From a virus (lineage: Duplodnaviria > Caudoviricetes), in IMG/VR virus record IMGVR_UViG_3300038530_001000, positions 1 to 54,267 of that record: a stretch of DNA of 54,267 nucleotides. One strand, 5' to 3'. Shown piece by piece: positions 21,316 to 40,200 of the stretch (the stretch's first letter is position 1; every line of letters begins with the position of its first letter). The translations under genes and the position numbers were made by a program. The notes under the pieces were generated by a model. The model was not told where the DNA came from. It was given only the letters and a program-made list of their open reading frames with translations, and searched no databases.

Positions 21316-21376
21316 CTGTCGAAACCGCTCCGGCGGTCTGCATCGATTGGCCCCGATGCACTGATGAGACAGGCCA
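21316..21376 (+). ncRNA. Type II hammerhead ribozyme
   Basis: CTGTC-GAAA-CCGC(TCCG)GCGG-TC-TGCATCG(ATTGGCCC)CGATGCA-CTGATGA-GACAG-GCCA: full core, three perfect stems, GUC site, loop I / 3' tail pseudoknot. Confidence 0.95.
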
Positions 21377-21405
21377 CCGAATTCTATAACCAACGGAGAA
21401 ATCCT

Positions 21406-21669
21406 ATGCTGAACAAAGCATATCTAAACGACGAACTGACAGAAGAACTAGGTTACGACCTGTTCAAAGTCAACAACGATATAAACGGTAACCCGCGTTA
21501 CGTGATCCATTTTCTGGCATTCGCCAACACATACGACGAAGCGCACGCCATCGCAAAATCTATCGGCTTTCAGAAGTACCGAGGCAAAGACTTTGGCGGC
21601 GGTTTCGTTGGTCAAAGCTACAGCGTCCAAGGCACCGCGCAGGACATCATCAGAGTGAGAAACAAGTAG
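21406..21669 (+). CDS. Early hypothetical protein (NNDINGNPRYVIHF family)
   Basis: RBS CGGAG, ATG at 21406; KYRGKDFGGGFV.QSY. Confidence 0.75.
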   Translation: MLNKAYLNDELTEELGYDLFKVNNDINGNPRYVIHFLAFANTYDEAHAIAKSIGFQKYRGKDFGGGFVGQSYSVQGTAQDIIRVRNK

Positions 21670-21680
21670 GAGATTCTAAC

Positions 21681-22616: not shown

Positions 22617-22635
22617 CGGCCCCAGAGGTAGACAA

Positions 22636-22833
22636 ATGATCTTAACTGACACTAACGGAAAACGCTGGAAGCTCCACGCTCGGCTGAGCGGTGAGAGGTA
22701 TCAGATATATCCGAACCACTCACAATTAAATCTTAGCGAAGAGGACGGCGACCGTCCGACTACTGGCCTAACAATACCCGACCACATTGCCGACGAATGG
22801 ATTGCGGGCAGGGTGAGAGTCAAAGTTGATTAA
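22636..22833 (+). CDS. Early hypothetical protein
   Basis: RBS GAGG. Confidence 0.6.
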   Translation: MILTDTNGKRWKLHARLSGERYQIYPNHSQLNLSEEDGDRPTTGLTIPDHIADEWIAGRVRVKVD

Positions 22834-22843
22834 GGAGAAAAAC

Positions 22844-23074
22844 ATGCACACCTATCTTTCAGACGATCAGATCGACCGCATGGCAGATGCAGCGGTCACA
22901 ACATACGAAGTCGGTTGCGACTGGAACGGGGCGTTACAGGCAGCGATTGAATACAGCCTCGATGAGTACGGCATACGCCCTCGAAAATCAGCGGCATTGC
23001 TGGCACTGAAGCTGGCTAAAACTAAATGGCAAGGACGGGTGATGGCAGTGAAGCGTGCCATCGCTAATCAATAA
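22844..23074 (+). CDS. Early hypothetical protein
   Basis: RBS AAGGAG, ATG at 22844. Confidence 0.7.
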   Translation: MHTYLSDDQIDRMADAAVTTYEVGCDWNGALQAAIEYSLDEYGIRPRKSAALLALKLAKTKWQGRVMAVKRAIANQ

Positions 23075-23084
23075 GGAGAACAAC

Positions 23085-23474
23085 ATGGTAGTAACAAAAG
23101 AAAACTCACCAGTCTTTGATGGCATATGGCACTCAAGCAATGGTGATGCCCACGTCATACCAGAAGCTTGGATGCTTTGCCCTAGATGCAATGGCGAAGG
23201 CAAGCATGGCAACCCCGCATTCGATGGCATGAGCATGTCTGAATTGCATGAGCAGGATCACTGGGACGACGACTTCGTAGATGGCTATATGTCAGGACGC
23301 TATGACGTTACCTGCGAGGAGTGCAAAGGACGCACCACCGTCAGAGGGTACAACCTATCGAAGCTCACACCAGAGCTTCTCGAAGAATACTTTGCAGACG
23401 TGCGAGATATCGAAACCCAGCGATACGAAGATTGGAAAACATATCAGGCGGAGATGGGATACCGACCCTACTAA
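23085..23474 (+). CDS. Zinc-finger protein (DnaJ-type CxxCxGxG)
   Basis: CPRCNGEG and CEECKGR; RBS AAGGAG. Confidence 0.75.
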   Translation: MVVTKENSPVFDGIWHSSNGDAHVIPEAWMLCPRCNGEGKHGNPAFDGMSMSELHEQDHWDDDFVDGYMSGRYDVTCEECKGRTTVRGYNLSKLTPELLEEYFADVRDIETQRYEDWKTYQAEMGYRPY

Positions 23475-23489
23475 CAACAGGAGAAAAAC

Positions 23490-23750
23490 ATGAGAGAGAA
23501 AATCAAGTCCCTGACCTTGAAAGACTTAGTAAACATCGTTGAGCAGACGATAGATCACTACGATCTAACCCTGCCAAATTCATATCGAGTCGCTGAGTTG
23601 AACCAACTTAAAAGGTTAGCCAACGATCCAAACATACGGCCCGAACCCACCGAACTGGACTTAGCTAGATTCGATGTGCTCATTGATTACATGCAAGACC
23701 AAATCATTGATCAGCAAATTGACCGAGTTGTTGCGACTCGTTGCTCGTGA
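23490..23750 (+). CDS. Early hypothetical protein
   Basis: RBS CAGGAG. Confidence 0.65.
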   Translation: MREKIKSLTLKDLVNIVEQTIDHYDLTLPNSYRVAELNQLKRLANDPNIRPEPTELDLARFDVLIDYMQDQIIDQQIDRVVATRCS

Positions 23751-23764
23751 TACGTTATACTAAA

Positions 23765-24218
23765 CACACAACAGGAGATCCAATGATGGGCGTTAAAAAA
23801 ATAAATGGGCAATTCAATAATTTCGTTTGTGCCGGAGACACCATACGCGACAACGTAAATGGATGGGGTGTGCGTGTTTCTGTTTTGCATGACAGTGACT
23901 ACCACATTGACGATGACGATATGCACAGTGAAAACCAAGCGTTAACAGGGCTGAATGAGGAAGCACACAAGAGCCTTATGGCTGCGAGAACGTCATGGTT
24001 TAGGAATGACTGGTTCTATGGAGGAGTTAGTGTCTCTATTTATCGAGAAGGTGTTGAGTTGGCAGAACAATCTATTTGGGGCGTGGAGGTTAATTACCCT
24101 AATTCTAACAACGAATATCTGATGGAGCTTGCTAACGAACTATTAGAGGAATGCTTTACAGAAGCGCATCACAAGATAGAAAAACTTTCGGCTTTTGCCA
24201 CACAACAGGAGATCCAAT
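23765..24218 (+). repeat. Exact 20-nt direct repeat CACACAACAGGAGATCCAAT (23765-23784, 24199-24218) flanking one gene
   Basis: Direct comparison; both copies contain the RBS. Confidence 0.9.
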
Positions 24219-24220
24219 AA
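23783..24220 (+). CDS. Early hypothetical protein
   Basis: ATG at 23783 after CAGGAG; W.YGGV.V......L...SIWGVE. Confidence 0.7.
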   Translation: MMGVKKINGQFNNFVCAGDTIRDNVNGWGVRVSVLHDSDYHIDDDDMHSENQALTGLNEEAHKSLMAARTSWFRNDWFYGGVSVSIYREGVELAEQSIWGVEVNYPNSNNEYLMELANELLEECFTEAHHKIEKLSAFATQQEIQ

Positions 24221-24498
24221 TGAACTACAAAACAAGACGATTCTTTCGAGACCTGACGCGAGGACTGAAGATCTTCGCAGCATTCATGATGAAGATGGCG
24301 GCAGCGATTCTATTACTATTTGTTGGCGTTTTCTTCACCCACTACGCATTTACCACCACAAGCATCGATGACCTGCGCTTTGGCGTCCTGGCTATGAAGT
24401 TCATGGGCCTTGCGTTCTGCTCGATCTCAGCAGGCGTGATGTTCATAGCAGTGCGTGATTTTGATGATGACGCACGATTCTATTTTGGAGGGCGATAA
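24220..24498 (+). CDS. Two-TM membrane protein
   Basis: Two hydrophobic segments; ATG at 24220 after CAGGAG. Confidence 0.7.
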   Translation: MNYKTRRFFRDLTRGLKIFAAFMMKMAAAILLLFVGVFFTHYAFTTTSIDDLRFGVLAMKFMGLAFCSISAGVMFIAVRDFDDDARFYFGGR

Positions 24499-24713
24499 TG
24501 GGAACGATAAACAACAAGCTGGAGCATTGGTTACCAGATCACCTGCGAAATCTTGAATGGTATTTAACGTGTGACTATCAAAGCGTCAATACATTCAGCG
24601 CCTGCTATTGCTTCAATAGTGAAGCATCAAAAGACATGGTACTGAGACGAGAGATCAAGGAACTAAAAGAATATCTTTATGCGACCACAGGCATGAATTA
24701 CGGAGGGCGTTAG
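24498..24713 (+). CDS. Early hypothetical protein
   Basis: RBS GGAGG; TAATG coupling. Confidence 0.6.
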   Translation: MGTINNKLEHWLPDHLRNLEWYLTCDYQSVNTFSACYCFNSEASKDMVLRREIKELKEYLYATTGMNYGGR

Positions 24714-24715
24714 CT

Positions 24716-25093
24716 ATGAAGTATCAACAATGGGACGCAAGTGTTCGAGGCTGCAAAACTTTCAAGGATGACTGCGTTGTGAGGTCACTCAGCGTTGTGC
24801 TGGGTAAGCCTTACGCCAGAGTGTTCACTGATCTAATGGGGATTGGTCAACTCATGTGGGCCTTTCCCAATCACGACAAAGTTTGGATCTGGTATGCCGA
24901 GGATCAAGGGCTGGTCAAACGTAAGCCACCCCGCGATGACAACGGCAAGCTGATCAAACTCAGCGACTGGGACTACAAAGGCATAGCCATCGTCCGCAAT
25001 AGCGGACACCTCACGGCAGTCGAGCACGGCTACCTGATCGATACATGGGACTGCCGCTATCGCCCAGTCAACAGCTACTGGGAGACAATCTGA
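24716..25093 (+). CDS. Putative papain-like Cys-His-Asp hydrolase
   Basis: DCVVRSLS...GHLTAV..G.LIDTWDC. Confidence 0.6.
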   Translation: MKYQQWDASVRGCKTFKDDCVVRSLSVVLGKPYARVFTDLMGIGQLMWAFPNHDKVWIWYAEDQGLVKRKPPRDDNGKLIKLSDWDYKGIAIVRNSGHLTAVEHGYLIDTWDCRYRPVNSYWETI

Positions 25094-25275
25094 TGGATAA
25101 CTACTCAGCCGAGGGCATTGTTAAAGGGTTTATCGAGGCCGATGAGACCAAGGTGATCGAGGCTTGGCAATACCTAGTCGATACCGGCTTTGCTTGGCAG
25201 CTAATCGCAGCGCAGGCAATAGAACCTTGGGCCATACAAAACCTGATCGATGCAGGAATTATCACTGCAAAATAA
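25093..25275 (+). CDS. Early hypothetical protein (EAWQYLVDTG.AW.L family)
   Basis: TGATG coupling; RBS GGAG. Confidence 0.65.
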   Translation: MDNYSAEGIVKGFIEADETKVIEAWQYLVDTGFAWQLIAAQAIEPWAIQNLIDAGIITAK

Positions 25276-25302
25276 TTTCACAAACCAACAGGAGAAATCC
25301 AA

Positions 25303-25668
25303 ATGACTAACCAAATCAAACAATACCTGATCGACAGCATCACCTTGGAAGGATACACCGATCCAGACGGCAACCCATACAACGAACAAAGCATGACCGA
25401 TGGCGAGAAGATCGTCGCCGCCAAGCGTAACTTCGAGTCAGAGATGGGCTGGTTGATCGAGAGATCAGGACAGCACAAGGCTTGTGTCGATTGGCTGTCT
25501 GGCCTGTGCAGCACTATGAACATCGCCTTCTCATACACAGACATCATCGACCTAGCCCGACGCACTGGTGGACTCAAGGAGGGTGACAGCGAGAGGCGAG
25601 AGGACTACATCTGCGAAAACTACTTCCCCTTCATGGCAACCAAGTTGCTGCAACTATTCAACACATAA
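25303..25668 (+). CDS. Early hypothetical protein
   Basis: RBS CAGGAG; DWLSGL. Confidence 0.7.
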   Translation: MTNQIKQYLIDSITLEGYTDPDGNPYNEQSMTDGEKIVAAKRNFESEMGWLIERSGQHKACVDWLSGLCSTMNIAFSYTDIIDLARRTGGLKEGDSERREDYICENYFPFMATKLLQLFNT

Positions 25669-25678
25669 GGAGAACCCG

Positions 25679-26038
25679 ATGAGCGAATTAGAAATAGATG
25701 AAATGGATCTTAGCAACTTAACCGATGTGCAGCTTGACATGATCAATAACCTCGTTTGGAAGGTTTGCCAGGCGGCTTCTGGCCCCAACCTAACAATGAA
25801 CAGACTGGCGACTCGTATACGAAAAGAGAAAGAAGCAAGGGCGCTCGATTGGATTTATGAAGAAACTCTCAAGGGAGAAGAAGCAGAAGGCCACTGGCGT
25901 TGCCATAAATCTTTCGACATAGATTCAGACCACGGGCCATGCACAGGCTATGAGATCGAAGATCTAGGCATCACGATCTATACCTACGTCGATGATGACA
26001 ACCGCATATCAATTCACAGAGAGGAGACCCAAAAATGA
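25679..26038 (+). CDS. Early hypothetical protein
   Basis: RBS AAGGAG, ATG at 25679. Confidence 0.65.
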   Translation: MSELEIDEMDLSNLTDVQLDMINNLVWKVCQAASGPNLTMNRLATRIRKEKEARALDWIYEETLKGEEAEGHWRCHKSFDIDSDHGPCTGYEIEDLGITIYTYVDDDNRISIHREETQK

Positions 26039-26466
26039 ACGAACAAAAGTCAATCGACTTAGCAGCAGATAATTGGGTGAGGCTACACAAAAAAGGGCAC
26101 TTGAATTTAGACCACATAGGGAAGGTGTATGGCTCTGTCGCGGGGTACCTTCGCAACCATGGTTCTGGCCGAGGTGACCGTGGATTGCGCGATATCGAAA
26201 TCGCTTCATGGCATCACAAAGACGGCTGGACTGACACCGTTGAATGGTACGAGGACACCTACCAAATCGGATACTACCGATTACCCCGCGAAGAAAGAGT
26301 GACTCCACAAGACCACACCTCACAACTTGATTTCTGTGCTGATTTTGACTGGTGCCTAGATCGCATCAAAGAGTTGAGAGACGAGGGCTATTACGACATC
26401 TCTATGCACGAATTGAGCGAGGGCGAATACGTCAGCGAGATTCGTATCGAAGACTACATAAATTAA
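26035..26466 (+). CDS. Early hypothetical protein
   Basis: RBS GAGGAG; ATGA overlap. Confidence 0.65.
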   Translation: MNEQKSIDLAADNWVRLHKKGHLNLDHIGKVYGSVAGYLRNHGSGRGDRGLRDIEIASWHHKDGWTDTVEWYEDTYQIGYYRLPREERVTPQDHTSQLDFCADFDWCLDRIKELRDEGYYDISMHELSEGEYVSEIRIEDYIN

Positions 26467-26487
26467 TCACATCAAGGAGCAAACAGC

Positions 26488-26730
26488 ATGAGCAACGTGA
26501 CCCCAATCAAAACCAAGACCCACGCAAACCTGAGTGAGATGTTACTCAAGGCAGGCATAGCAGACTCAAGAGTGCCGGACTTACGCCGCGCTCTCATCGA
26601 TGTTCACAAAGCCTACTGCGATCTCGATCCCTGGGGCCGCAGTGACTTCAAGCATCTGTGTGGAGACCGCAAGTTCCACGAAGTGCTAATGATGATTGCG
26701 TCAGTTGAGGATCTGAACACTGATCTGTGA
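26488..26730 (+). CDS. Early hypothetical protein
   Basis: RBS AAGGAG. Confidence 0.65.
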   Translation: MSNVTPIKTKTHANLSEMLLKAGIADSRVPDLRRALIDVHKAYCDLDPWGRSDFKHLCGDRKFHEVLMMIASVEDLNTDL

Positions 26731-26732
26731 AG

Positions 26733-26761
26733 TTGCAACCACACAACGACTCGTATAAAAT
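26733..26761 (+). promoter_or_regulatory. Sigma70-type promoter
   Basis: TTGCAA-17 nt-TAAAAT in intergenic gap. Confidence 0.7.
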
Positions 26762-26792
26762 AACGTACAACACACAACAAACAGGAGAACCT

Positions 26793-27479
26793 ATGAAACC
26801 CATAACGAAGCAAGAACTGCGCGATCAACTGAAAGAAGCTAACGAGAAGTTGATCGACACTGAGCGTCGCCTGAGAGACGCAGAGACTCAAAGAGAATCG
26901 ACACGCAAAAGATTCGTTGAGAAGCGTGAGCGTGTTGAGGAACTGGAGGCTCTGTTAGCCATCGAGAACCATGATCCAGACTTGGTAGACAAGTACAAGA
27001 TCGTTCACCCAGACAATGTTTGGTGGATGAAATCCTCTGATGCGTACATCACCATCAACACGCATGGCGCTGAGTCTGACTACCACATGGGCAAGAAGCA
27101 GCGAGTCAGCACAATACCAATTCCTAATCTAAATCTTGCATCTCGATGGCACAGCAAAGTGCCGAGCATTCGTGTATGGCAGGATGGAGAATGGCAGTAT
27201 GTTGAGTCTAATTCTTGGGTGCTGGTCAGCGAAGACGATAAGGGTCAGGTCTGGGAGAGACCTAGTGTCGAGATCGGTGACCGCACTTATCCATCTGAGA
27301 CTGTTCTGGTGGAAACGCGAGAGCAATTCTATGCCCGTAAAAGAGTGGAGACCGACGAGCACATCGCTCTGTTGCTTGATACCGCCCGAAGCATTACCGA
27401 TTTGTACTCCAAGATTGGCGGCTGGCCCGACAACGAGGTATCAGTCGATGTAGAGATCAACAACATTCAGGATATTTAG
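26793..27479 (+). CDS. Hypothetical protein with N-terminal coiled coil
   Basis: ATG at 26793 after CAGGAG (MKPITKQELRDQ...). Confidence 0.75.
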   Translation: MKPITKQELRDQLKEANEKLIDTERRLRDAETQRESTRKRFVEKRERVEELEALLAIENHDPDLVDKYKIVHPDNVWWMKSSDAYITINTHGAESDYHMGKKQRVSTIPIPNLNLASRWHSKVPSIRVWQDGEWQYVESNSWVLVSEDDKGQVWERPSVEIGDRTYPSETVLVETREQFYARKRVETDEHIALLLDTARSITDLYSKIGGWPDNEVSVDVEINNIQDI

Positions 27480-27487
27480 GAGACGCC

Positions 27488-27859
27488 ATGAAACCCGAAA
27501 CGAAACAAGAACTGCGTGATCAGGTTGCACACCAAGAGAACCTGCTAGATATACAGCAACAAGCGATCGGTGACTTGGAGGACAAGTTATACCCACAGAA
27601 GATCTACCTTGATCATGCAGACATCGGAATGATTTTGACTTTGTTGCACCATGAATCTGGCTCCATTGACGAGGGCCTTAATAGGCTGGAACGCATTGAA
27701 GATCCGTACGATCAAGTTGGTGACGCTGTTTATTATGCGCTGAATCAACAGAAGGGCCGTCTGAGAAAGCTGGCAAACAAAATCAAAGATCAGTCTCCGA
27801 GAGACTATAAATTTGATGTCGATATGCAAGCTGTCGTGCCGACTGAGTCCAATGAGTGA
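27488..27859 (+). CDS. Hypothetical coiled-coil protein; N-terminus paralogous to the previous gene
   Basis: MKPETKQELRDQ; RBS AGGAG. Confidence 0.75.
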   Translation: MKPETKQELRDQVAHQENLLDIQQQAIGDLEDKLYPQKIYLDHADIGMILTLLHHESGSIDEGLNRLERIEDPYDQVGDAVYYALNQQKGRLRKLANKIKDQSPRDYKFDVDMQAVVPTESNE

Positions 27860-28169
27860 TTTTGAAGAGATCCTCGACTCACTCGATGCACTGATCGTGC
27901 AGTGGGAGGAGGCTGCCATGGCTCAAGTGAACTATGACACTTCCTTCAAAAGCTGGGAGTCTGCACGCAAGACAGCACTTATGGATTCGGGTCTCAGCGC
28001 AGTTCGCGCCGAGGCTCAGATCCGTGGGTCTGCTGAGTGGTCTCAGTACTACACTGATCTGCAAATGCAGAACATCCAGGTTGAGAAGAAACGAAAACAG
28101 ATCGATGCCTGCAAGCTTCGCTTCGAGGCAGAGCGCACCGAGAGAGCCGATAAAAGGAGGATCGTGTGA
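27852..28169 (+). CDS. Helical hypothetical protein
   Basis: ATG at 27852; S...AEAQIR.S.EW...FEAERTERA. Confidence 0.6.
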   Translation: MSDFEEILDSLDALIVQWEEAAMAQVNYDTSFKSWESARKTALMDSGLSAVRAEAQIRGSAEWSQYYTDLQMQNIQVEKKRKQIDACKLRFEAERTERADKRRIV

Positions 28170-28405
28170 GTCAGCAATTCATTCACGATATGCGTGAAAA
28201 GGTGATCGCAATGGAAAAGATCAGCGAGATCCAGGAGATGCTGCACAACATGGCGGCATTGATGGTGGGCTACCCCGATGCGTCCGAAGAACAAAGCAAG
28301 CAATGGCTCGACACTCTGAACATCTGCCGGATCGAACTCAGGCGTCGGCATCCCCACGGGCAGGTACGTCTTGCGCCCAAGAAGGGAGTGATCAGCAATG
28401 ACTGA
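28166..28405 (+). CDS. Hypothetical protein
   Basis: RBS AGGAGG; GTGA overlap. Confidence 0.6.
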   Translation: MSQQFIHDMREKVIAMEKISEIQEMLHNMAALMVGYPDASEEQSKQWLDTLNICRIELRRRHPHGQVRLAPKKGVISND

Positions 28406-28721
28406 TGAAGAATGGATTCAGGAATACGAGAAGGCGGTGGCAGAGGTTCATCGCAAGCTCGAAGTCTGTGAGAAAGAACTCGTGATGTATTTTGTTAGAA
28501 CGGATGTCGATCAGCTTGGATCGAAAGATTGGTGGGCAAAAGAGGTTCAGACAAGTCTGATCCACGTCATCCAAAGGGATATCGGACTGTTGGCTAAAGG
28601 TGTCCATCAATATCGCGGATGGCGAGAGCGAATCGCTAGGATGGAGCGAGAAGGTAAGCTAGAGGGCAATGATCTCAACAGCGATAGCCTGCTGGTATAC
28701 GGTCAATACGAAATATATTAA
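28398..28721 (+). CDS. Hypothetical protein
   Basis: RBS GGGAG; operon context. Confidence 0.6.
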   Translation: MTDEEWIQEYEKAVAEVHRKLEVCEKELVMYFVRTDVDQLGSKDWWAKEVQTSLIHVIQRDIGLLAKGVHQYRGWRERIARMEREGKLEGNDLNSDSLLVYGQYEIY

Positions 28722-28735
28722 GGAGGACTAACACA

Positions 28736-29014
28736 TTGAAAGGGAGAAACCATTTCGTGGATCTCGAAAAAGAGGTACGCGAGTATTTATCTGACGCTGA
28801 TCTTCGCGCGCAAGTGCTTGAGGAGTTAGCGCAAAACATTTTGAGGAAAATGGTGGAGATGCACAGTTACACCAGCGGGCCTGGGCTTGTGAGTCCAGCG
28901 CCAAAAAGCTCTGTGTCCTTCGCTGGCGCGATAGTGAAAGGCGTTGCCAGCGTAATCGCCGAAGAGTTGGGGAAGTATGGCGAGGAACGTCCTGCGCCCA
29001 AAAAGGAGAGCTAA
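28736..29014 (+). CDS. Hypothetical protein
   Basis: RBS AAGGAGG, TTG start. Confidence 0.6.
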   Translation: MKGRNHFVDLEKEVREYLSDADLRAQVLEELAQNILRKMVEMHSYTSGPGLVSPAPKSSVSFAGAIVKGVASVIAEELGKYGEERPAPKKES

Positions 29015-29016
29015 CT

Positions 29017-29310
29017 GTGTTGGATAGAGGTGACGCAGAACGAAGCGATCCACGCGCACCGTGGAACCAGCCGGACGCGATCATGTGTCCAAAGCATCCC
29101 GACATCGAGATGAATGAGGTTGAGGATGAAGACGAGAATGGCAAGTACTGCTTCACGTTCTGTGAAGTCTGCCTTGCTATCGAGGAAAACGAAAACGACA
29201 ACCTCCGATGTGGGGTCTGTCATGGCAATGACCTGGAATACGATCATGGCCCAGGCTTTTACTGCCTGCGCTGCGAGATGCACCAGGAAGTATTCATAAA
29301 CGAACTTTAA
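29017..29310 (+). CDS. Acidic Cys-rich (zinc-ribbon) protein
   Basis: CPKH, CEVC, CGVC, CLRC. Confidence 0.6.
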   Translation: MLDRGDAERSDPRAPWNQPDAIMCPKHPDIEMNEVEDEDENGKYCFTFCEVCLAIEENENDNLRCGVCHGNDLEYDHGPGFYCLRCEMHQEVFINEL

Positions 29311-29318
29311 GGAGAACC

Positions 29319-30599
29319 ATGGATTTCAAGATAGGTGACGCCGACGAGCTGGCGGATATGGCAGAAAAGATGATCAAGGGATCGAGTGTCGATTCGGAAA
29401 AACTGTTCAACATGCAGTTAGGCGATTTACAGAACGAGGCCATCGCAGCCAAGCAGCAACCCTTTGCCAAGCTGATTGGAATGGAGGAATACGAACATAC
29501 CAAAGAGCACAAAATTTTTTGGAAAAAGAAGTCTAAGCAAAGGCTTAACGACCCGATTCACGGGTTACGCAAAGCTGTAAGCTACACGATATCTGACGAG
29601 ATTATTGATTTTCTTCGGCCCTCCGTCGAAAAGGGTAACCAGCGAGCACTGTACAACGCTTGCCTGAACGCACGACCACGTCACAACAATATGTGGATTG
29701 AGTGGGAGTCTCATGACCCGTTGCAACATCGAGGCTTGACGGGTTGGCACATCATGACGATGCCTAATGTCTACAGGCTTGACAACGGTCATGCTGGACG
29801 TAGCTATCCGGTGAAGGCAGGCGAGTGCTTTCACTTCGAGAATTACTACGAGATCGATATCAAGCATCCCGCCCGATTCGCTAAGGCCAACGAGCTTATG
29901 GATAAGGCCGAGATAACCGGCGCTGCATTTGATGAAAATGTGCGAGTGGCGAGCGGCAAATTACAAAAACGGGTAGGCATATCGAAGCTGTCAGGATCGA
30001 CGGATATCTGGGCCAGTGAGCAGATATTCCAAAGAGACGGCAGCACTTTACTCCCCGAGCAAGTGAAGGCTAATGACGCGCTGAATGCGATGTGGTTCCT
30101 TGGTGATAATAGAGGTGAGTTCTCTCCAGATATGCAAACCATCATGGGAAATCGATGGCGTATTGGGCTGAACAATTACATCGATGACACCCCCGAGAAC
30201 AACAGACGAGTGCCGTTTGACCGGCGGGAGGAAGCGAACAAGATGGCTTGGCTGATGGCGATACTGAGCCTCATGAACTTCGACTGGTTTGTTGAAGAGC
30301 CGCGCAACGCAGGTGTACAGGGTAGCAAGCCGATGCGCGGGAACATAACGCCGTTTGATTCGCATTATACGGTGCTTTTGAAATTGCCGAAGACCAGGGG
30401 GCGAGTAATCGTACCCAAACAACCCAAGCGCACTGAGAGCTATGGTGTACGCTGGCACGAAGTCGTTGGCCACAAGCGCCATTATCGGGATGAGTTTGGT
30501 CAGATATACAAAACGATCTATATCAAGCCATACGGGCGTGGAAACGAGAAACTAGGACGTGTAACAAAAGACTATGCGGTGGTGAAAGACGATGAGTGA
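29319..30599 (+). CDS. Conserved phage protein (426 aa) with C-terminal H.V.GH.R motif
   Basis: RWHEVVGHKRHY...IYIKPYGRGNEKLGRVTKDY; RBS AAGGAG. Confidence 0.8.
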   Translation: MDFKIGDADELADMAEKMIKGSSVDSEKLFNMQLGDLQNEAIAAKQQPFAKLIGMEEYEHTKEHKIFWKKKSKQRLNDPIHGLRKAVSYTISDEIIDFLRPSVEKGNQRALYNACLNARPRHNNMWIEWESHDPLQHRGLTGWHIMTMPNVYRLDNGHAGRSYPVKAGECFHFENYYEIDIKHPARFAKANELMDKAEITGAAFDENVRVASGKLQKRVGISKLSGSTDIWASEQIFQRDGSTLLPEQVKANDALNAMWFLGDNRGEFSPDMQTIMGNRWRIGLNNYIDDTPENNRRVPFDRREEANKMAWLMAILSLMNFDWFVEEPRNAGVQGSKPMRGNITPFDSHYTVLLKLPKTRGRVIVPKQPKRTESYGVRWHEVVGHKRHYRDEFGQIYKTIYIKPYGRGNEKLGRVTKDYAVVKDDE

Positions 30600-30822
30600 A
30601 CTTAGTATTAAATACCTCAAGCTTGAGGCAGATGAACTGACTACCCTGGCGACTCTGCTTCGCATGAGCAAGGACGATCCCAGGATTAATGGCTTGATCG
30701 GCACTTGTTTTTGGAGTCACGCCTACTCAAAGGAGGAGGAGGCCGAGCTAAAACAAGCTTGGACTCGACTGCTCGATAAGGTGAATGCGCTGGTCGAGGA
30801 GCAGCATAATGTCTCTGTTTGA
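30592..30822 (+). CDS. Hypothetical protein
   Basis: Overlaps previous stop; operon context. Confidence 0.6.
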   Translation: MSELSIKYLKLEADELTTLATLLRMSKDDPRINGLIGTCFWSHAYSKEEEAELKQAWTRLLDKVNALVEEQHNVSV

Positions 30823-31048
30823 TGATGTGGAGCAAATCATGGTGCTGGCAAACGAGATACTTGGCGATCACCCCAAGGGCGACTATGAGATCGTGATCAT
30901 GTATCGAGACCCAGACTTGGGTGAGGAGTGGCAGACTGCCAGCTATCGAGACATGATGATCTCGGACATCCAATCTCTACCAGAGATCACTGACGGCTAC
31001 GAGATCGGTGGTATGTCAGTCAAGAAAATCAGAGGACTAAGGGGCTAG
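30809..31048 (+). CDS. Acidic hypothetical protein
   Basis: ATG at 30809 after GAGGAG. Confidence 0.65.
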   Translation: MSLFDDVEQIMVLANEILGDHPKGDYEIVIMYRDPDLGEEWQTASYRDMMISDIQSLPEITDGYEIGGMSVKKIRGLRG

Positions 31049-31062
31049 GATCGGCAAGGCGA

Positions 31063-31171
31063 GTGTCAGCGTCAGGCCGTGCTGGGCTTAACACGACCCA
31101 GCCTCCAGTGTGAAATAGGTGAGATGAAGCGGCTGCCCCATGGTTCACAACCCAATCTCATCGACTGGCAC
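31063..31171 (+). ncRNA. Candidate double-pseudoknot structured RNA
   Basis: Closing helix GTGTCAG/CTGGCAC around two crossing helix pairs; intergenic. Confidence 0.45.
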
Positions 31172-31177
31172 ATCTAT

Positions 31178-31220
31178 CAAAAAGAAACCCCCGGTCACAG
31201 ATGGAGGCGGTGACCGGGGG
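31178..31220 (-). terminator. Rho-independent terminator of the minus-strand replication operon
   Basis: 11-bp stem CCCCCGGTCAC/GTGACCGGGGG followed on the minus strand by TTTCTTTTT. Confidence 0.85.
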
Positions 31221-31252
31221 CTAGGGATGACGGTTAAGGAGAGACCCGTCAA
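31178..31252 (-). ncRNA. Candidate sRNA with two anti-Shine-Dalgarno loops
   Basis: Possible promoter TTGCAA-16-GAGAAT (31284-31257); hairpin loops GUCUCUCCUUAA and CGCCUCCAUCU; terminator. Confidence 0.5.
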
Positions 31253-31287
31253 ATGGATTCTCTCAAACGCTATAGGATTTGCAAAGA

Positions 31288-31764
31288 CTATTCTCTTCCC
31301 TTGGAAATGTAATCTCGATCCAATTGCTGCATCGCTAGACGGAAGATCGGAATCTCTTCATCGACAAACTCCTTGTCTTGAGCAATGCCGTTGATCACCA
31401 TGTAAGCATGATCGTCACCTACTGCTTCCTCGATGCATTTTGCAGTGTCCCGCAACCTTAGCAACCCGTAGTTGTAATTACTTTTCTGGAATCTAGTCGA
31501 TGGTGTGCTGTTCAGGTTCACACTTTTCACAAACGCTCCGGCGTCCACGAACACTTGCAGCATGTACTCTGCTGCCTTGTGCTCGATCAAAGTGATCTTG
31601 TCCTTCAGCAGCAACCGATCTATGGCTAACTGATCGGTGACTCTCGCCCTCGACACCACCTCGCCATCTTCTTTTTCCAAAACAATGTCGTGTCTCTCAT
31701 GCAGTTTCGGATTACCCACATCCATTGTGATTTCATCAGATGTCCCACTCGTCTTCTGTTTCAT
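31288..31764 (-). CDS. Hypothetical protein, possibly a late transcription regulator
   Basis: RARVTDQLAIDRLLLKDKIT..EH.AAE; downstream of primase-helicase. Confidence 0.6.
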   Translation of the reverse strand: MKQKTSGTSDEITMDVGNPKLHERHDIVLEKEDGEVVSRARVTDQLAIDRLLLKDKITLIEHKAAEYMLQVFVDAGAFVKSVNLNSTPSTRFQKSNYNYGLLRLRDTAKCIEEAVGDDHAYMVINGIAQDKEFVDEEIPIFRLAMQQLDRDYISKGRE

Positions 31765-33511
31765 TAAAATTCCTCACTGGTCTGACCGGGTTAGCCTCTG
31801 CCTCATCCCAATCGACAAAATCTTTGTACCTGCCGTTCACAGGGTCATAGCTCAGCTTTGCATGGCCTACCGATCCGATCCACTTGAACCGACACTTCCA
31901 CGAATGCACTTCGATGTGCTCACCAGTGCGATGCACCGTTAGTCCACAGTCTGATTTTGCAAACCATGCAGCACTGCCACTGATGTGATTGCCATTCGGT
32001 ATCGGCATCTGTCCGTTGTCGTTCGCCCTCATCTTTGCAGGGTGAGCGATGAACCAGATATGCAGATCGCAGGATCGAGCAAACTGCACCATGCGTGTCA
32101 GCATCTCACTGATCGCGTAGCTCTCTTGTTCTGCGTTGGCTTGTGCGATGTAATTGTACGGATCGATTACTAGGCCACGGCAACCCAGCCGCATCACTGC
32201 CTGCTTCGTGCGATCTATGATCGAGTCGATGGTAGCTGGTTCACCATCTTTGCTGTCGAGAAATGCGAAGTGATCGTTCACCCAGGACTTAGCCTCACTC
32301 ATCTCAGCCTGTGACATACGCTCTGTATCACCCATGAAGAATGGCTTGCGTGCTCTCTTCTCACTCAACTTGATAATGTGTAGGGGTGGAGGGTTCTCGA
32401 AGCTGGCAATGGCAAACTTCCAATCGTGTTGCTCTGCTAGATTTACCAGCACCGCATCGATGAACTCTGACTTGCCTGACCCAGGCAAACCCGTCACCAC
32501 TGTAAGCTGACCTTGCAACACTGTGTATAGGTCATCGAGTCCCGTGAACCCAGTGCTCTTGCCCTGCATCAACCCACGCTCGTACAGGAACGCCACATCA
32601 TCACTGTAATCATCGGCGCTGTAGACACCGACGAGTGGCGTTGGCACTGCACAATCGACCAACTCGGCCAAATAATCAGCACCATGATTGATTAGCGCGT
32701 CGTTGGCGTCCTTACAGCCCTCTGGAAGCTCTAAGTGATAGCACTTGGCCCTCCCTACACGCCTCATTATCTCCTCGCCTAGCGCCTCTCCAGGCTCATC
32801 AGAGTCCATTGCCAGAATGATCTTGTCTGCATTATCTAGGACAGATTTTGCTTTCCATAGGTATCCGAACTTTCTGTCCTCTGCTGGATCGACCTTGCGG
32901 TTGCTAACCTTTTGTGGAGCACCACTGGGTACAGATACCACCAGGTGATCAGGACGATTGCCCAGAGCATCAGAGATCGCGCAGCAATCAAGCTCACCTT
33001 CAGTAATGATCACTGTGGTATGTTGCTCAGAGGCCGACTCTATGTTCCACAGATGCTGGGCAGACCCATCCTGTATGAAGTTCTTGCCCTCAGTCGAGCG
33101 CCACTTGATCGCAGACTTGTCCTGGTATGCGAAGCCGATGGCTGACACGTCACCAGCGTTGTGGAAGTAGTGAGTGCCACCAACTACATTGAGATGGCGT
33201 ATGCGATCTGGATCTATGCCTCGAAGGCGTAGGAAGTTGTCAGCGACTAGCGAATCGTTTTGTTTTGGGACACTGATCGCCTGCACCTTGGCTGGTGGAT
33301 CAATGTCAAAATCATCGAATGGATTGTCTTTCACCTTGCCCGATGCCTCACAGTGCCAGCATTTGTACACCAGGCCATCGCTAACCTGATCGACATCGAG
33401 TGTGCGTTGGTTTTTTTTCTTTCTGTCACCAGAGCATAATGGACAGACATGCCTCCCTTCTCCGTGACTTGTGAGAAAATACTCAAAGTCGCTCTCATTC
33501 AACTGATTCAT
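31736..33511 (-). CDS. DNA primase-helicase (T7 gp4 / Twinkle-like)
   Basis: Zn finger CPLC...CWHC, TOPRIM ITEGELD and DSDEPG, Walker A GLPGSGKS, VIDPYN, IAHPAK, ISGSAAW; ATG at 33511 after GGAGG. Confidence 0.95.
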   Translation of the reverse strand: MNQLNESDFEYFLTSHGEGRHVCPLCSGDRKKKNQRTLDVDQVSDGLVYKCWHCEASGKVKDNPFDDFDIDPPAKVQAISVPKQNDSLVADNFLRLRGIDPDRIRHLNVVGGTHYFHNAGDVSAIGFAYQDKSAIKWRSTEGKNFIQDGSAQHLWNIESASEQHTTVIITEGELDCCAISDALGNRPDHLVVSVPSGAPQKVSNRKVDPAEDRKFGYLWKAKSVLDNADKIILAMDSDEPGEALGEEIMRRVGRAKCYHLELPEGCKDANDALINHGADYLAELVDCAVPTPLVGVYSADDYSDDVAFLYERGLMQGKSTGFTGLDDLYTVLQGQLTVVTGLPGSGKSEFIDAVLVNLAEQHDWKFAIASFENPPPLHIIKLSEKRARKPFFMGDTERMSQAEMSEAKSWVNDHFAFLDSKDGEPATIDSIIDRTKQAVMRLGCRGLVIDPYNYIAQANAEQESYAISEMLTRMVQFARSCDLHIWFIAHPAKMRANDNGQMPIPNGNHISGSAAWFAKSDCGLTVHRTGEHIEVHSWKCRFKWIGSVGHAKLSYDPVNGRYKDFVDWDEAEANPVRPVRNFNETEDEWDI

Positions 33512-33605
33512 CTTGCCTCCTTGCGAATCGTTGTGATTTGTGATATTTATCGAAAGCAATCGAACGACAGCTATCTCATCAACTCTTTAAGTTGATCTGT
33601 AGCTT

Positions 33606-33893
33606 TCAGATTCGATAGCCTTCGATGACCGTTCTCCTTAGTTCCTTCACCCCATCTCTCACTGCCTTCTGACGCCTGACACCCTCGTCCTGGCTTGCCA
33701 CCTTGTAAGTGATCTCAAAAAACTTTGCAGCAACGCCATCATCGATACCGTTATCCCTGCAAACTTCATACGCATCGAACTTCATCATGTAACGTAGTGC
33801 GTCCTCTCTAACAGACTGCACTGGATCATTAAGATCCTTGATCGTCTGTTCTAGCATCTTGATCACCAAGTCTTTTTTATTCGATAGGTTCAA
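33606..33893 (-). CDS. Hypothetical protein
   Basis: Overlaps the end of rusA. Confidence 0.55.
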   Translation of the reverse strand: MNLSNKKDLVIKMLEQTIKDLNDPVQSVREDALRYMMKFDAYEVCRDNGIDDGVAAKFFEITYKVASQDEGVRRQKAVRDGVKELRRTVIEGYRI

Positions 33894-34224
33894 CGGTGAT
33901 CTCTGCCCTGGGATTCTCTTTGTCGAGTCCGTGATAGATATGCTTCTCTTTCACCTGCCTATCGTTCTTGTAGGCGTACCCCTCCAAACAATCGAGTATC
34001 ACTGACTCATCCAAATCTGGCCTACGAGTTCGATAATAAATCGTCATGGTGACTCTCACGTCGCCTTCGAGTAGTTCATCTAACTGGGGGCATTGCTTTT
34101 TGAATGCGGCAACATAATCAACCGCCTTCTTGCTTTTGATTAATCGAGCACGTCCTGCAATCGTTACCATTCTACGCGAGTTGGCTTTCGATGCAGGTTC
34201 TCCTAGTATTATTGCCTCAAACAT
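33877..34224 (-). CDS. rusA: RusA-family Holliday junction resolvase
   Basis: GEPASKANSRR...RRPDLD....LDCLEGYAYKNDRQV...NPRAEITV; ATG at 34224. Confidence 0.88.
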   Translation of the reverse strand: MFEAIILGEPASKANSRRMVTIAGRARLIKSKKAVDYVAAFKKQCPQLDELLEGDVRVTMTIYYRTRRPDLDESVILDCLEGYAYKNDRQVKEKHIYHGLDKENPRAEITVEPIE

Positions 34225-34225
34225 G

Positions 34226-34254
34226 TTGCACAACATAACGTGGGTCGTTATACT
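34226..34254 (+). promoter_or_regulatory. Sigma70-type promoter for the recombination operon
   Basis: TTGCAC-17 nt-TATACT. Confidence 0.75.
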
Positions 34255-34276
34255 TTGCAACCTGATGGAGGTTTGC

Positions 34277-34630
34277 ATGAGCAAAATTGGAAACTATGTA
34301 TTTGAATGCGAAGAGCGAGGAGAGATGTTCTTCAATGAGGAGTCTTTGACCTATGAGTTTAGAAATCAAACCGAATGTGGACATGAAAGTGCGTCAGCCG
34401 GGAGAGTCGTTGCCGACAATACCGTGGGACGAGATGTATTGGAAGGACGCCTTCGATATACCCGTCACCGTCGACAACTATCAAAGCCGTTTAAGCGCAG
34501 CAAGAAGTTCCTACAAACGCTGGCAAGATCGGCAAACAAACGAAGAGCGAGAGTTCTACATCGGCAAGCACGACGAGAACGACAATCTTTTCGTGCGGGT
34601 CTACTGCAAAAAGGGGCCAGTGCGCGATGA
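34277..34630 (+). CDS. Hypothetical protein (MSKIGNYVFECEERGE...), overlapping the next ORF
   Basis: RBS GGAGG just after the promoter. Confidence 0.45.
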   Translation: MSKIGNYVFECEERGEMFFNEESLTYEFRNQTECGHESASAGRVVADNTVGRDVLEGRLRYTRHRRQLSKPFKRSKKFLQTLARSANKRRARVLHRQARRERQSFRAGLLQKGASAR

Positions 34631-34682
34631 AAATAACCAATCATCACAATCTTTCACAACCGATAGTTCAAGCCCTTTCTAG
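34353..34682 (+). CDS. Hypothetical, possibly DNA-binding protein
   Basis: RBS GAGGAG; PWDEM...DAFDIP...VRVY pattern. Confidence 0.65.
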   Translation: MSLEIKPNVDMKVRQPGESLPTIPWDEMYWKDAFDIPVTVDNYQSRLSAARSSYKRWQDRQTNEEREFYIGKHDENDNLFVRVYCKKGPVRDENNQSSQSFTTDSSSPF

Positions 34683-37256: not shown

Positions 37257-40200
37257 CTATTCGGTGCGCCCCACGATCTCGCTGTACTTACGATTAAACC
37301 TATCGTAAGCAGCCTTCTTCATGGCCTGCAACTCCTCTTCTTCCTCTGCGTACCGCTTGGCAGCAGAGGGATTTTCGTTCGCCATGCCGCGCAACTCGCG
37401 CAGCCTCTTGTTTACTAGACGTATTTCTTTGTCTGTAGCTCGAACCATGGGTGCCATGGATATGAAGGGCTGGTTTTCTTCCAAGTAATCTAAGAAGTCT
37501 TGCCGATCTTGTATGACATCGAGTTGGTTCTCTCTTTGTAGAACCCTCGTTCTGCGCTCATAGAAATCTGTTTGGCTAGTTCTGTGATCAACCTCGCCTG
37601 CTATGCGACGATAGAACGGTATATCGTTAACCGATATGTCCTCCTCGTTAGCAAGCTTTCGGAATGCCTCTACTGTTCTCAAGCCAGTGGCCCCAGCGCC
37701 ACCTAGTGCGTAATTGAACAGATGCTGAATTTTGTCTGGGGAAAAATCCAACGCGCCTGGTACTGATTCGTTTCCACCAGTAAGACCATTCATAATCTTA
37801 GCGGCATTCTTAAAGCCTTCAAAAGTAGACTGCTTTGCGAGTTGACTAAGCGGTTGCTCTACACCGTAAGGTACTTGCTCAGAATACACCGGGGCACCAA
37901 AGAAGTTTTCGTTGGACAGTATTTCAAGCACAGGCTGACCGATTGTAGGAAATCCAGTCTTGGCAAGCATGGTCAAAAAGTCTTTGGACTCTGATATGCC
38001 AATCGGGTTGAATGAACCAAGCAATGCCTTTGTGACAAGTGTTGCCGCTTCCTCTGGCGACTTCATGCCGGACATCATCTCTTGAATGTTTGCACCCAAG
38101 ACGTGGAAAGCGTTGTATCCGTAAGGCAGAGGTATGGTGTAATAGTCCTTACCATTGTCTTTCATTATCACTATGTTTCTTTCTTTCACATAGTTAGGGA
38201 TGTTGGCGTAGAAAGACTCACCATTATCGTCTTCATCACTCATCGCCTCTGCCAAGGCAGATAGCAAAGCTCCCGATCCAACCATACTGGCGACCATGCC
38301 TTGCTTAACTCTTGACGCTCTTGGATCAAACACATTTAAGCCGCGAGCAAAGTTCATAGTGCCCTGCACCGATGCATTAAAGAACAAGTACAGGCTATTA
38401 AGTAGCTGACCTTGATCTCCTGATCTATTGAAGTTGACAGTGAGGTTCTTAGCAAGCGTTGCTGCTTTAGCTATAGCCTCATCTCTGGGGATACCGTTTG
38501 CGATAAATTCATCTCTTGCAGCCTTGAACGATGCAAATCTCACACCGTTTTCTACTGCCGCATTTGAATCCTCTACTAGGTTTAAGATCGTATCTCTAGC
38601 TTCCTTGGCCTTACCTTTGTAAGTGCCTTTAGCCATCTCGATCATGCTATCGATAGTAGCCTTTTGCTGTTCAGGTGGCCTACTGTGAAACCAATCAGCT
38701 TTTGCACCAGCCGTTATATATTCTTCATAATCCTTGCGTTGCTCATTAGTCTGCTTATCACTGTTTCTGAAGCCCCTGTAGAAAGCGCGGATTGAAGGCA
38801 GAGTGTCCTTTATGACCTTGCCGACGATGCGAGTGTCCATCGCTTTGCCTTCCGGCATACTTTGCTCGCCAATGATATTGTAAACGGCAGTCTGGATGTC
38901 TCTTGCAAAGTTACCGACCACGAACTCTGGGTTGAAAGAAGTGTTAACCGCTGACAAGAATCTGTTTACAGCCCCTAACGATTGAATAATCTTGCTGCTG
39001 TTAGACGCATCAAGGTTCAATAAAGCCTTACGAAGATTGTCATCCTTAATATCAATCGCAACCTGCTCGCCGTTAATCTTCACGCCGAACATCTCTCTGG
39101 GTAGGGACTGCCCCTCTCGCATCACAACCTTTTTGACGTACAGCCTACGCTCTGATTCTGGCAGTCCAGGCGGAATCTTTTGCACACGTTCACCCGTTGG
39201 CAGATAGGTGTACACCGACTCCAACATGCGAGTGTATTTTGGGTTGTCCTGATCGTAGACTTCCCAAGAGTTTGGGTTGGGGTTGTTCTTCGCTAAAGCA
39301 TAAAGTTTTTGACCGAACTCTTTGTTCTTCGCTGATCGAGCGATAGCCCTTTCTCTATCTGATATCACCGTTGCTAACGGAGATTCAGCAGCACTTTCTC
39401 TGCCCAAAGCCCTGCGAGTCTCTGCTCCTTCGATGCTTACTTTGCCAGAAGATCCAGAGGTGGGAGATAAGAACTGAGATGAGAAATCATCCTCTATCTC
39501 TTTGCCCTTCAGGGGCACATAGTATTTGTAAAAACCACTGAGAAGATTTTTGTCCTCTTGAGAATACAACCCGCCTTCTGTGTTTGTATCTATCGTTTTC
39601 TGAATGATCGAGTCAACTTTACTGGCAAGCTTACCCAGCACCCTTGCTCTTTGGTTGCCGCCAGACCACTCTCCAGTCTTGTCGTTCCACTTCAAATCGT
39701 ACTGATCCCTCATGCGATCTGTAACGTATTGATTTGTAAGTCTTACCTCTTCACCGTCAACAACAATGCTACCCGCGCCACCGTCAGGTATGCGATCATT
39801 GATCTGTGAGATCCGCTTGTTACGCTCTAGCGCATGTCGCAGGATAAGAAAATCATCTAGCTCTTTGATTGCCTCCTGCGTGCTTTTCTGCGTGTTCGCT
39901 GCTGCAAGTTCATCGACCAGCGGTTGCACTTCTTCCCTTTGAAAGACTCTGGCTGTTTCACCTATTTTCCCCGGTATGGATTCTTCACCTATATAGGCTG
40001 ACTCAAGTGCTGCTATTGGCTCTTGACCCAAAGCAACCCTAGCTTTGTTGATAGCCTCTTCGATCTTCTTTAGACCGATAAACTTATCAGCCACGTTGAA
40101 AATAAATCTGTCACCACGGGTCATCACGGGTGTTTCAAAGGAACTGTATTCGTTCTCAGGCAACCCCTGCTCAGCCCTCTTAACGACAGGAGGGCGCACG

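Follow-up and report, generated by a model that had tools for sequence, protein, structure and literature searches.

The DNA analysed here (hereafter the window) is a whole IMG/VR viral record of 54,267 bp (IMGVR_UViG_3300038530_001000, Caudoviricetes), estimated to be 98% complete. Our subject is a short minus-strand element, a candidate small RNA (sRNA) gene, which lies between the stop codon of a 158-aa open reading frame (ORF), the last gene of a replication operon that also encodes RusA and a primase/helicase, and the end of a convergent block of plus-strand genes. A divergent recombination operon is encoded on the plus strand (Table 1). The element begins 4 nt past the 158-aa stop codon and consists of a promoter-like pair of hexamers (TTGCAA-16-GAGAAT), two hairpins and a U tract, all present where the initial annotation had described them.

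A two-hairpin element downstream of the replication operon

The minimum free energy structure calculated with RNAfold for the minus strand contained both hairpins (-38.8 kcal/mol, z = -3.39, none of 200 shuffles as good), and the fold of the plus strand was weaker (z = -2.07, 10 of 200 shuffles as good). In the window, hairpin 2 has the features of an intrinsic terminator, that is, a G+C-rich stem followed by UCUUUUU. The terminator and its U tract had been correctly described, with the stem given as 11 bp; it comprises 13 bp, namely 11 G-C-rich pairs plus an A-U and a G-U pair at the base. It was missed by the terminator scan because its loop is longer than 8 nt, and the promoter-like pair was absent from the promoter scan because its 8 of 12 consensus positions fall under the scan threshold of 9 of 12. 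No Rfam 15 family (including c4, ar14/cuckoo and ErsA) reached its gathering score for the element; when positions 31000-31450 were searched with the covariance models at E <= 10, the best match was Pseudomon-1/ErsA, an unrelated family (19.8 bits against a gathering score of 50).

Related IMG/VR contigs were gathered with the 158-aa protein and with the primase/helicase, the best 80 of 355 relatives being used for the latter; 17 of these 80 primase loci contained the 158-aa gene. In addition, a profile of the 158-aa protein yielded 43 metagenome loci, 37 of which were examined. A model of the element (R1) served only to find members. Several of the related contigs came from TARA and other marine samples. 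In 13 other IMG/VR contigs, representing eight sequence variants, the element likewise comes after the 158-aa gene, and the promoter-like pair, hairpin 1 and hairpin 2 were all found within 150 nt of the 158-aa stop codon at 31 of the 37 metagenome loci. The remaining six included three with a single hairpin (L153-155, resembling L022), two with other sequence (L136 and L137) and one that was cut. Wherever IMG/VR sequence continues past the 158-aa stop codon, an element was present on the same strand, except in L023, which has no sRNA, and L007, in which it lies ~320 nt further.

Variants were compared at 21 representative loci. Stem pairs were counted by script; MAFFT alignments of the hairpins were not structure-consistent. 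Hairpin 1 occurred as 14 distinct sequences with 13 distinct 5' arms (for example, UGACGG, GACAGU, UCAGCGAA, UGUAACGCC, CAACGUC, GUGUC and UGUCGG), and hairpin 2 as 19 distinct sequences with 14 distinct 5' arms. Each of five positions in hairpin 1 showed three to five pair types; for hairpin 2, counted outward from the loop, three to six were found at 10 of 11 positions and two at the outermost one. It should be noted that the stems were set by a hairpin finder and pair by construction, so that the evidence lies in how varied the pair types are and in whole stems being replaced with the loops kept. For stems defined in this way, a conserved structure with compensatory changes was found, as expected of a trans-encoded base-pairing sRNA. 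Moreover, 40 G-U pairs (8 in hairpin 1 and 32 in hairpin 2) would be A-C mismatches on the plus strand, which identifies the primase (minus) strand as the RNA strand.

A promoter-like hexamer pair was also retained upstream of the hairpin or hairpins in all 21 variants. TTGC(A/G)N is kept 15-17 nt from a NANAAT-like -10 hexamer in most of the 21 variants, including all window-like clades, with 6-9 of 12 positions matching in the hexamer pairs and TG frequent at the extended -10 position. Where TGCACC, TGCACA or TGGACG was the best -35 pick, TTGCA lay one base away, except in the single-hairpin type. The gap between the end of the -10-like hexamer and hairpin 1 measures 3-8 nt in 18 variants and 14-19 nt in the L148, L156 and L153 types, and nucleotide-level conservation among relatives is lost in the coding sequence directly upstream. 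By eye, a U-rich tail follows hairpin 2 in 11 variants, is moderate in the L153 type and is absent from nine; hairpin 2 is retained even where it is not a canonical terminator. In the L138 clade (L138 ~5095-5225; L140, L142 and L139 likewise), a conserved ORF of 33-34 codons for a hydrophobic peptide lies downstream of hairpin 2, which lacks a U tract there, and is encoded on the same strand; by eye, the Shine-Dalgarno (SD) sequence of this ORF is partly paired with an upstream CCCUC. This ORF could be a small membrane protein with the sRNA-like element as its leader.

Pattern searches of IMG/VR gave no match to the exact 33-nt terminator. The pattern AGAAT..GTCTCTCCTT..GCCCC was found in 22 stretches, nine of which were contigs already known to carry the element; the other 13, judged by reading their folds, lacked the architecture of a promoter plus two hairpins. 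Two of these 13 were copies of a hairpin with the loop GUCUCUCCUUUA followed by CCGCCUCCC, on one 295-kb IMG/VR contig (L101 3424-3485 and L115 7529-7590); they had no Rfam match, and their context is unrelated to the phage family.

The element is thus a real, conserved, structured minus-strand RNA element with a conserved promoter-like motif. This bears out the view that it is more than a plain terminator, and the comparison of variants suggests that it is very probably a regulatory RNA.

Table 1. Positions of the element, its candidate partner sites and surrounding genes in the window
Feature	Position	Strand	Details
-35-like hexamer TTGCAA	31279..31284	minus	16-nt spacer to the -10-like hexamer
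-10-like hexamer GAGAAT	31257..31262	minus	TG before it at the extended -10 position (TGAGAGAAT)
Hairpin 1	31228..31251	minus	6-bp stem, TGACGG (31246-31251) / CCGTCA (31228-31233)
Hairpin 1 loop (loop 1), 12 nt	31234-31245	minus	DNA GTCTCTCCTTAA, RNA GUCUCUCCUUAA; anti-SD-like core UCUCCUU
Hairpin 2 (terminator, proposed pairing module)	31186..31222	minus	13-bp stem, 31210-31222 / 31186-31198
Hairpin 2 loop (loop 2), 11 nt	31199-31209	minus	DNA CGCCTCCATCT, RNA CGCCUCCAUCU
U tract UCUUUUU (DNA TCTTTTT)	31179..31185	minus	follows hairpin 2
Ribosome-binding site (RBS) GAUGGAGGU, proposed target 1	34264..34272	plus	first ORF of the recombination operon (ATG 34277)
RBS GGAGGC, proposed target 2	33515..33520	minus	primase/helicase (ATG 33509-33511)
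RBS TTAAGGAGA of 76-aa gene (ATG 22844)	22830..22838	plus	5 nt before ATG; loop 1 duplex -11.6 kcal/mol
RBS TTAAGGAGA of 426-aa gene	29307..29315	plus	3 nt before ATG; loop 1 duplex -11.5 kcal/mol
AGGAGAGA in first ORF (+42)	34318..34325	plus	8-nt loop-1 site, not supported as a conserved target
158-aa ORF, last gene of replication operon	31288..31764	minus	stop codon 31288-31290
Primase/helicase	31736..33511	minus	true ATG 33509-33511
95-aa ORF		minus	replication operon, between RusA and primase/helicase
RusA, first gene of replication operon	33877..34284	minus	bounds of the listed ORF
Recombination operon, divergent	first ORF ATG 34277; PD-(D/E)XK exonuclease 34627; Erf 35783; SSB 36435	plus	
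Structural and lysis genes	1-20,700 and 37,257-54,267	minus	terminase, portal, major head protein, tail spike, endolysin
Small, mostly unknown genes	21,064-31,048	plus	starting with an ArdC-like protein

Loop 2 and two ribosome-binding sites

Loop 2 had been noted as complementary to the RBS near 34264. At this site, GCCUCCAUC of loop 2 forms eight Watson-Crick pairs and one G-U pair (duplex -16.4 kcal/mol), and GATGGAGG lies 5 nt before the ATG, behind a promoter-like TGCACA-16-TATACT. When all 24-nt windows on both strands were ranked, it was the sixth best non-self duplex site for loop 2, and none of the five better ones is at a start codon according to the ORF list. In the window alone, GATGGAGG occurs twice (in the element and at 34264) against 1.82 expected, and 54 of 100 shuffles reach two copies; the match is not above chance there and becomes meaningful only via comparison with relatives.

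For this comparison, the 27 nt before and including orthologous start codons were matched to the loops (+/-1 nt) in every lineage; the longest Watson-Crick run was taken as the score, and cognate and non-cognate loop/RBS pairs were compared by shuffling. At the first ORF, the mean run for loop 2 was 8.0 in cognate and 5.49 in non-cognate pairs (p = 0.0003, nine lineages), and 7.81 versus 5.38 after the metagenome variants had been added (16 distinct pairs, 0 of 50,000 shuffles). At the primase gene, the corresponding values were 8.12 and 6.04 (p = 0.0014, eight lineages), and 8.71 and 5.87 in the enlarged set (17 pairs, 0 of 50,000 shuffles). The RBSs of SSB, the 158-aa gene and the exonuclease, which served as negative controls for loop 2, gave p = 0.16, 0.86 and 0.36, respectively. 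Target complementarity kept by covariation was found for loop 2 with the two RBSs and not for loop 1. These comparisons indicate that loop 2 covaries with the RBSs of the first ORF of the recombination operon and of the primase gene. The complementarity at 34264, one of the three targets named in the initial annotation, is kept via compensatory changes in relatives, and the primase RBS appears to be a second covarying partner that was absent from that annotation.

Independent compensatory events are what counts here, rather than p-values. At the first ORF, the RBS/loop pair reads GAUGGAGG/CCUCCAUC in the window, AGAAGGAGG/CCUCCUUCU in L127, AACGGAGGA/UCCUCCGUU in L148 and CAACGGAGGA/UCCUCCGUUG in L156. 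The loop base 3' of CCUCC tracks the RBS base 5' of GGAGG between lineages: RBS U meets loop A in the window group, A meets U in L127 and L130-L135, and C meets G in L148 and L156. At the third position upstream, G-C is replaced by A-U in L148, and a U-G pair in L148 becomes C-G in L156. Between L138 (CCAAC..GGAGAA/UUCUCC.GUUGG) and L142 (CCAAU..GGAGAA/UUCUCCAUUGG), CCAAC/GUUGG changes to CCAAU/AUUGG. In L022, the first ORF has an unusual, non-SD-like RBS, CUAAGUGGA, and the loop, which is without CCUCC, reads UCCACUUAG, a 9-nt match. Additional complements of the L022 loop are a perfect one of 13 nt within the primase coding sequence (4284-4296, plus), one of 11 nt within the exonuclease gene (2369-2379, minus) and one of 8 nt at the RBS of another gene (~6712-6719, minus).

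At the primase gene, it is the 5' half of loop 2 that tracks the 3' flank of the SD. The match comprises 6 bp in the window (GGAGGC/GCCUCC, the pair of the window group; -13.4 kcal/mol) and 9-13 nt in other lineages, the pairs being AAGGAGGCA/UGCCUCCUU in L127, AGAAGGAGA/UCUCCUUCU in L130-L135, GGAGGAUGCUU(UG)/(CA)AAGCAUCCUCC in L148 and GGAGAAUGCUU/AAGCAUUCUCC in L138-L142, where a G-to-A change in the RBS is met by C-to-U in the loop. The match to GGAG(G/A)AUGCUU(UG) extends over 11-13 nt in the L148 and L138 clades. In these two clades the loop, of 15-17 nt, is visibly composite, with its 5' half corresponding to the primase leader and its 3' half to the recombination leader.

A promoter-like TTGCAC - 17 nt - TATACT precedes the first ORF in most lineages. 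The leader would be ~18-20 nt long, so that the loop-2 site covers most of the 5' untranslated region (UTR), including the SD. The stop codon of the first ORF and the start codon of the exonuclease overlap (ATGA), and the exonuclease SD is weak; blocking the first ORF would therefore be expected to lower the exonuclease too. The first ORF (34277..34630) is overlapped by another frame (34353..34682), which is the better conserved of the two (82.7% versus 62.8% identity to L005 in the shared part). Only the first ~25 codons of the first ORF are unambiguous, and the overlapped tail, of variable length (90-118 aa), is rich in arginine.

Loop 1 and other features of the window

The loop 1 core UCUCCUU (CUCC(U)U) is present in every lineage except the L009 type (CUCUCAC); the L022/L153 type has no hairpin 1. 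It is complementary to AAGGAGA, which is the SD of SSB in 7 of 7 lineages and that of Erf in the window group. Two early genes had been put forward as its targets on the basis of TTAAGGAGA, which occurs three times in the window (22830, 29307 and the element) against 0.34 expected, with 0 of 100 shuffles reaching three. This proposal did not survive comparison with relatives, as the 76-aa gene was found in none of five related records and just the C-terminal third of the 426-aa gene in three of the five. Close relatives (L123, L124 and L126) keep (T)TAAGGAGA at the RBS of the counterpart of the 426-aa gene. Since loop 1 is nearly invariant and equals a generic anti-SD, the TTAAGGAGA matches are indistinguishable from a match to any strong SD.

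The site inside the first ORF, AGGAGAGA, and a minus-strand site near 2595 share the lowest energy for a non-self duplex of loop 1 in the window (-15.9 kcal/mol). Together with loop 2 covering the RBS, this 8-nt site at +42 of the same mRNA might give a c4-type two-site layout in the window; the +42 site is not kept across lineages. A run of at least 7 nt at +35 to +43 was found in only 6 of 13 lineages, and a second contact in the first ORF is not claimed.

Other RNA elements were observed in the window. A Hammerhead_II ribozyme match (21317-21378, plus; 38.5 bits versus a gathering score of 37) lies at the start of the plus-strand early block and is the only gathering-level Rfam match in the window. 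A second structured element occupies 31040-31172 on the plus strand, between the end of an 87-aa ORF and the sRNA terminator. Compensatory changes were found at 15 of its 22 predicted pairs (nine sequences), with conserved single-stranded blocks GCGUCAGG, GAGAAAUAG and GAUGAAG, and no Rfam family matched it at E <= 10. L023, which has no sRNA, carries it too, and in L007 it lies ~0.7 kb beyond the sRNA. The 5' arm of hairpin 2 (CUAGCCCC, ~31216-31224, minus) recurs ~170 nt downstream (~31042-31050), at the far end of this plus-strand element; by eye, L008 has a C-to-U difference in both copies, which may be chance among G/C runs.

No family was found for the 158-aa protein in Pfam or PHROG; its AlphaFold model had a mean predicted local distance difference test score of 70.2 and no Foldseek match in PDB at E <= 0.001. 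No cultured relative was found: blastn of the region around 31 kb (30600-32000) against phage records gave no match, and the best tblastn match of the primase in phage records had 34% identity, in cyanophages. The sole match among species genomes was a 15.8-kb contig of a metagenome-assembled genome titled Parvibaculum sp., which is too weak to name a host.

Alternative readings, related systems and proposed function

We judge it fairly probable that the element is the gene of a ~72-nt trans-acting, c4/OxyS-like translational repressor RNA, the transcription and repressive action of which we infer from sequence. Most likely, base pairing with their RBSs would allow it to switch off the primase and recombination genes. 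A promoterless element of the operon 3' UTR, with the hairpins forming the mRNA 3' end or a processed fragment, would fit the start of the element 4 nt past the last stop codon, the weakness of the hexamers (6-8 of 12 in most variants) and the fact that hairpin 2 is the sole terminator-like structure at the operon end. By the same pairing logic, such an element would regulate the primase RBS of its own transcript in cis or, once processed, work in trans, and 3'-UTR-derived sRNAs are well known, CcsR being one described in PMC8034643. We nevertheless regard it as unlikely, because relatives retain the hexamer pair and its spacing from hairpin 1 while the coding 3' end upstream diverges, and because the -10-like TAGAAT of the L153 type (9 of 12) overlaps the stop codon. 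The canonical GC-rich stem with a U tract in the window, and GATGGAGG being in no excess there, might also fit a plain intrinsic terminator with an incidental upstream hairpin, its loops being without function and their complementarity to RBSs being chance among SD-like sequences, as any CUCC loop matches any SD. This reading is made very improbable by loops that are conserved or covary while stems are replaced, by cognate matches exceeding non-cognate ones for two RBSs and not for the three controls, by long or non-SD-like matches (the 9 nt of CUAAGUGGA in L022 and the 11-13 nt of GGAG(G/A)AUGCUU(UG) in the L148/L138 clades) and by the retention of hairpin and loop in the 9 of 21 variants without a U tract.

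The near-invariance of loop 1 across wholly different stems is what would be expected for a fixed partner, and the strong SD that occurs most often in these phages is one that loop 1 matches (AAGGAGA, for example, at SSB in 7 of 7 lineages). It is thus conceivable that the pyrimidine-rich loops mimic the 16S rRNA 3' end and titrate a protein, or SDs generally, as a decoy; the element would then slow translation broadly or shut off the host, and would not regulate specific phage mRNAs. As an account of the whole element this is quite improbable, for it leaves unexplained the loop-2 flanks that track two particular RBSs and the L022 type, whose loop is without CCUCC; for hairpin 1 alone, the decoy reading could apply. 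The initial annotation had further suggested that a plus-strand transcript, whose loops would be UUAAGGAGAGAC and AGAUGGAGGCG, both with GGA, might resemble a CsrA/RsmA sponge. This idea, like that of a DNA-level operator motif common to the three sites, is hardly credible: the sponge is contradicted by the 40 G-U pairs that would turn into A-C mismatches, by the weaker plus-strand fold (z = -2.07 versus -3.39) and by the U tract and promoter-like motif being found on the minus strand only, and a single operator motif cannot explain two RBSs matching different halves of a loop.

Several observations weigh against a promoter-driven repressor with two specific targets. The promoter-like hexamers match the consensus at just 8 of 12 positions in the window and at 6-7 in the L138 and L148 clades, and hairpin 2 is without a U tract in nine of the 21 variants; given the downstream ORF, the element in the U-tract-less L138 clade may be a leader or need processing. 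The shuffles ignore relatedness, and as RBSs or loops are shared by several lineages, the p-values overstate the evidence; both partners are SD/anti-SD-like, and some complementarity is expected anyway. Pairing at the first-ORF RBS amounts to only 6 bp in L124, with a broken position beside a compensated one, and to 7 bp in L009 (~6 at its primase RBS), and in L138/L142 the duplex is interrupted by a mismatch or bulge (5 + 6 bp). The primase pairing is just 6-7 bp in the window group. For loop 1, the cognate test against five RBSs gave no signal (p = 0.12-0.98), nor did the internal first-ORF site (p = 0.30 with Watson-Crick pairs and 0.055 with G-U included, n = 13). In addition, a better conserved frame overlaps the first ORF, so that the controlled protein may be that of either frame.

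Among known RNAs, c4 of P1/P7 is the closest functional analogue. As described in PMC12197685, its loop sequences bind around a phage mRNA RBS and block translation, and loop/target pairs that differ between these related phages lead to heteroimmunity; like the sRNA, c4 is phage-encoded, with complementary loops, and lies near, not opposite, its target. Unlike c4, to which it has no sequence or model similarity (no Rfam family at threshold), the sRNA would act on replication and recombination genes rather than on an antirepressor, and its pairing loop would be the terminator loop and serve two RBSs; nor is the sRNA known to be processed from a precursor. In the OxyS-fhlA complex, two stem-loops of a trans-encoded sRNA contact the mRNA and one sequesters the RBS (PMC2946933); AGGAGAGA at +42 recalls this two-site complex, whereas a second contact in the same mRNA is not supported for the phage sRNA, and OxyS is a Hfq-dependent host stress sRNA. 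The cuckoo/CcsR RNAs of Alphaproteobacteria (Rfam ar14) also have two hairpins with anti-SD loops. According to PMC8034643, these RNAs are located in the UTR of a small gene that lies upstream, and either have a promoter of their own or originate from the 3' UTR. Membership in this family was not found for the phage element: the CCUCCUCCC motif is absent from its loops, which show UCUCCUU and variable CCUCC flanks, no Rfam family matches it, and the upstream 158-aa protein has no DUF1127 or other Pfam family. It is, moreover, phage-borne, with its proposed targets inside the phage.

Lambda OOP RNA is 77 nt long, and OOP and P22 sar resemble the sRNA in size and in their place at a transcription-unit junction. 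They are also short phage RNAs that down-regulate a phage regulator, OOP being made from promoter pO (PMC12197685). Unlike the trans-encoded sRNA, which lies 2.3 and 3 kb from its proposed targets and would form 8-13 bp with them, they are cis-antisense RNAs with full complementarity. Regulation via C-rich hairpin loops rather than a single-stranded 5' seed is described for 6C of mycobacteria (PMC6486639), and regulation via terminator loops for SdsR, RseX and ArrS of E. coli; the latter loops act 'likely without base-pairing' in the wording of PMC11979758, whereas covariation indicates base pairing for the phage sRNA. The sRNA would represent a new family working by a known principle. Our literature searches returned no phage sRNA of this kind, and one loop serving two RBSs, with its 5' half for primase and its 3' half for recombination, was not found described for phage RNAs in the literature searched.

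In the mechanism that we propose, a sigma-70-type promoter of its own probably drives transcription of the sRNA, which would also form the 3' end of the operon transcript and consists of two hairpins, the second being the terminator. Loop 2 would be a composite antisense module: its CCUCC core and 3' flank would pair with the SD region of the first ORF, and the same core with the 5' flank would pair with the SD-to-start region of the primase/helicase gene. Pairing of 8-13 bp between the loop and a single-stranded leader would block 30S binding, and accumulation of the sRNA would turn down replication and recombination functions, with the exonuclease following the first ORF by translational coupling. 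The UCUCCUU of hairpin 1 probably adds a second, generic contact to strong SDs (AAGGAGA at SSB and Erf). As a constitutive host-type promoter and every operon transcript would both feed the sRNA, it may time replication and recombination or exert negative feedback on them. We infer repression as the direction, and the timing, from the positions of the sites.

By analogy with P1/P7 c4 heteroimmunity and with the incompatibility groups of plasmid copy-control RNAs, which they may resemble, the loop/RBS pairs might form specificity classes, in which the RNA of a resident phage would shut down primase and recombination of an incoming relative of the same class and spare one of another class; we hold this idea only tentatively and consider it doubtful. 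If true, the repeated joint diversification of one terminator loop and two RBSs among otherwise close marine phages would be the mark of phages excluding one another, or of copy control of replication, through one 72-nt RNA. In the account given in PMC12197685, few phage regulatory RNAs have a defined target, and nearly all of these come from cultured coliphages and prophages. Here, an RNA family of uncultivated marine phages gains two concrete, falsifiable candidate targets from comparative sequence alone, and its natural compensatory variants could be used directly as specificity-swap controls. If confirmed, the sRNA would be an instance of base pairing within the regulatory role of terminator loops that has lately been recognised (described in PMC11979758) and would reveal RNA-level control of phage replication and recombination genes.

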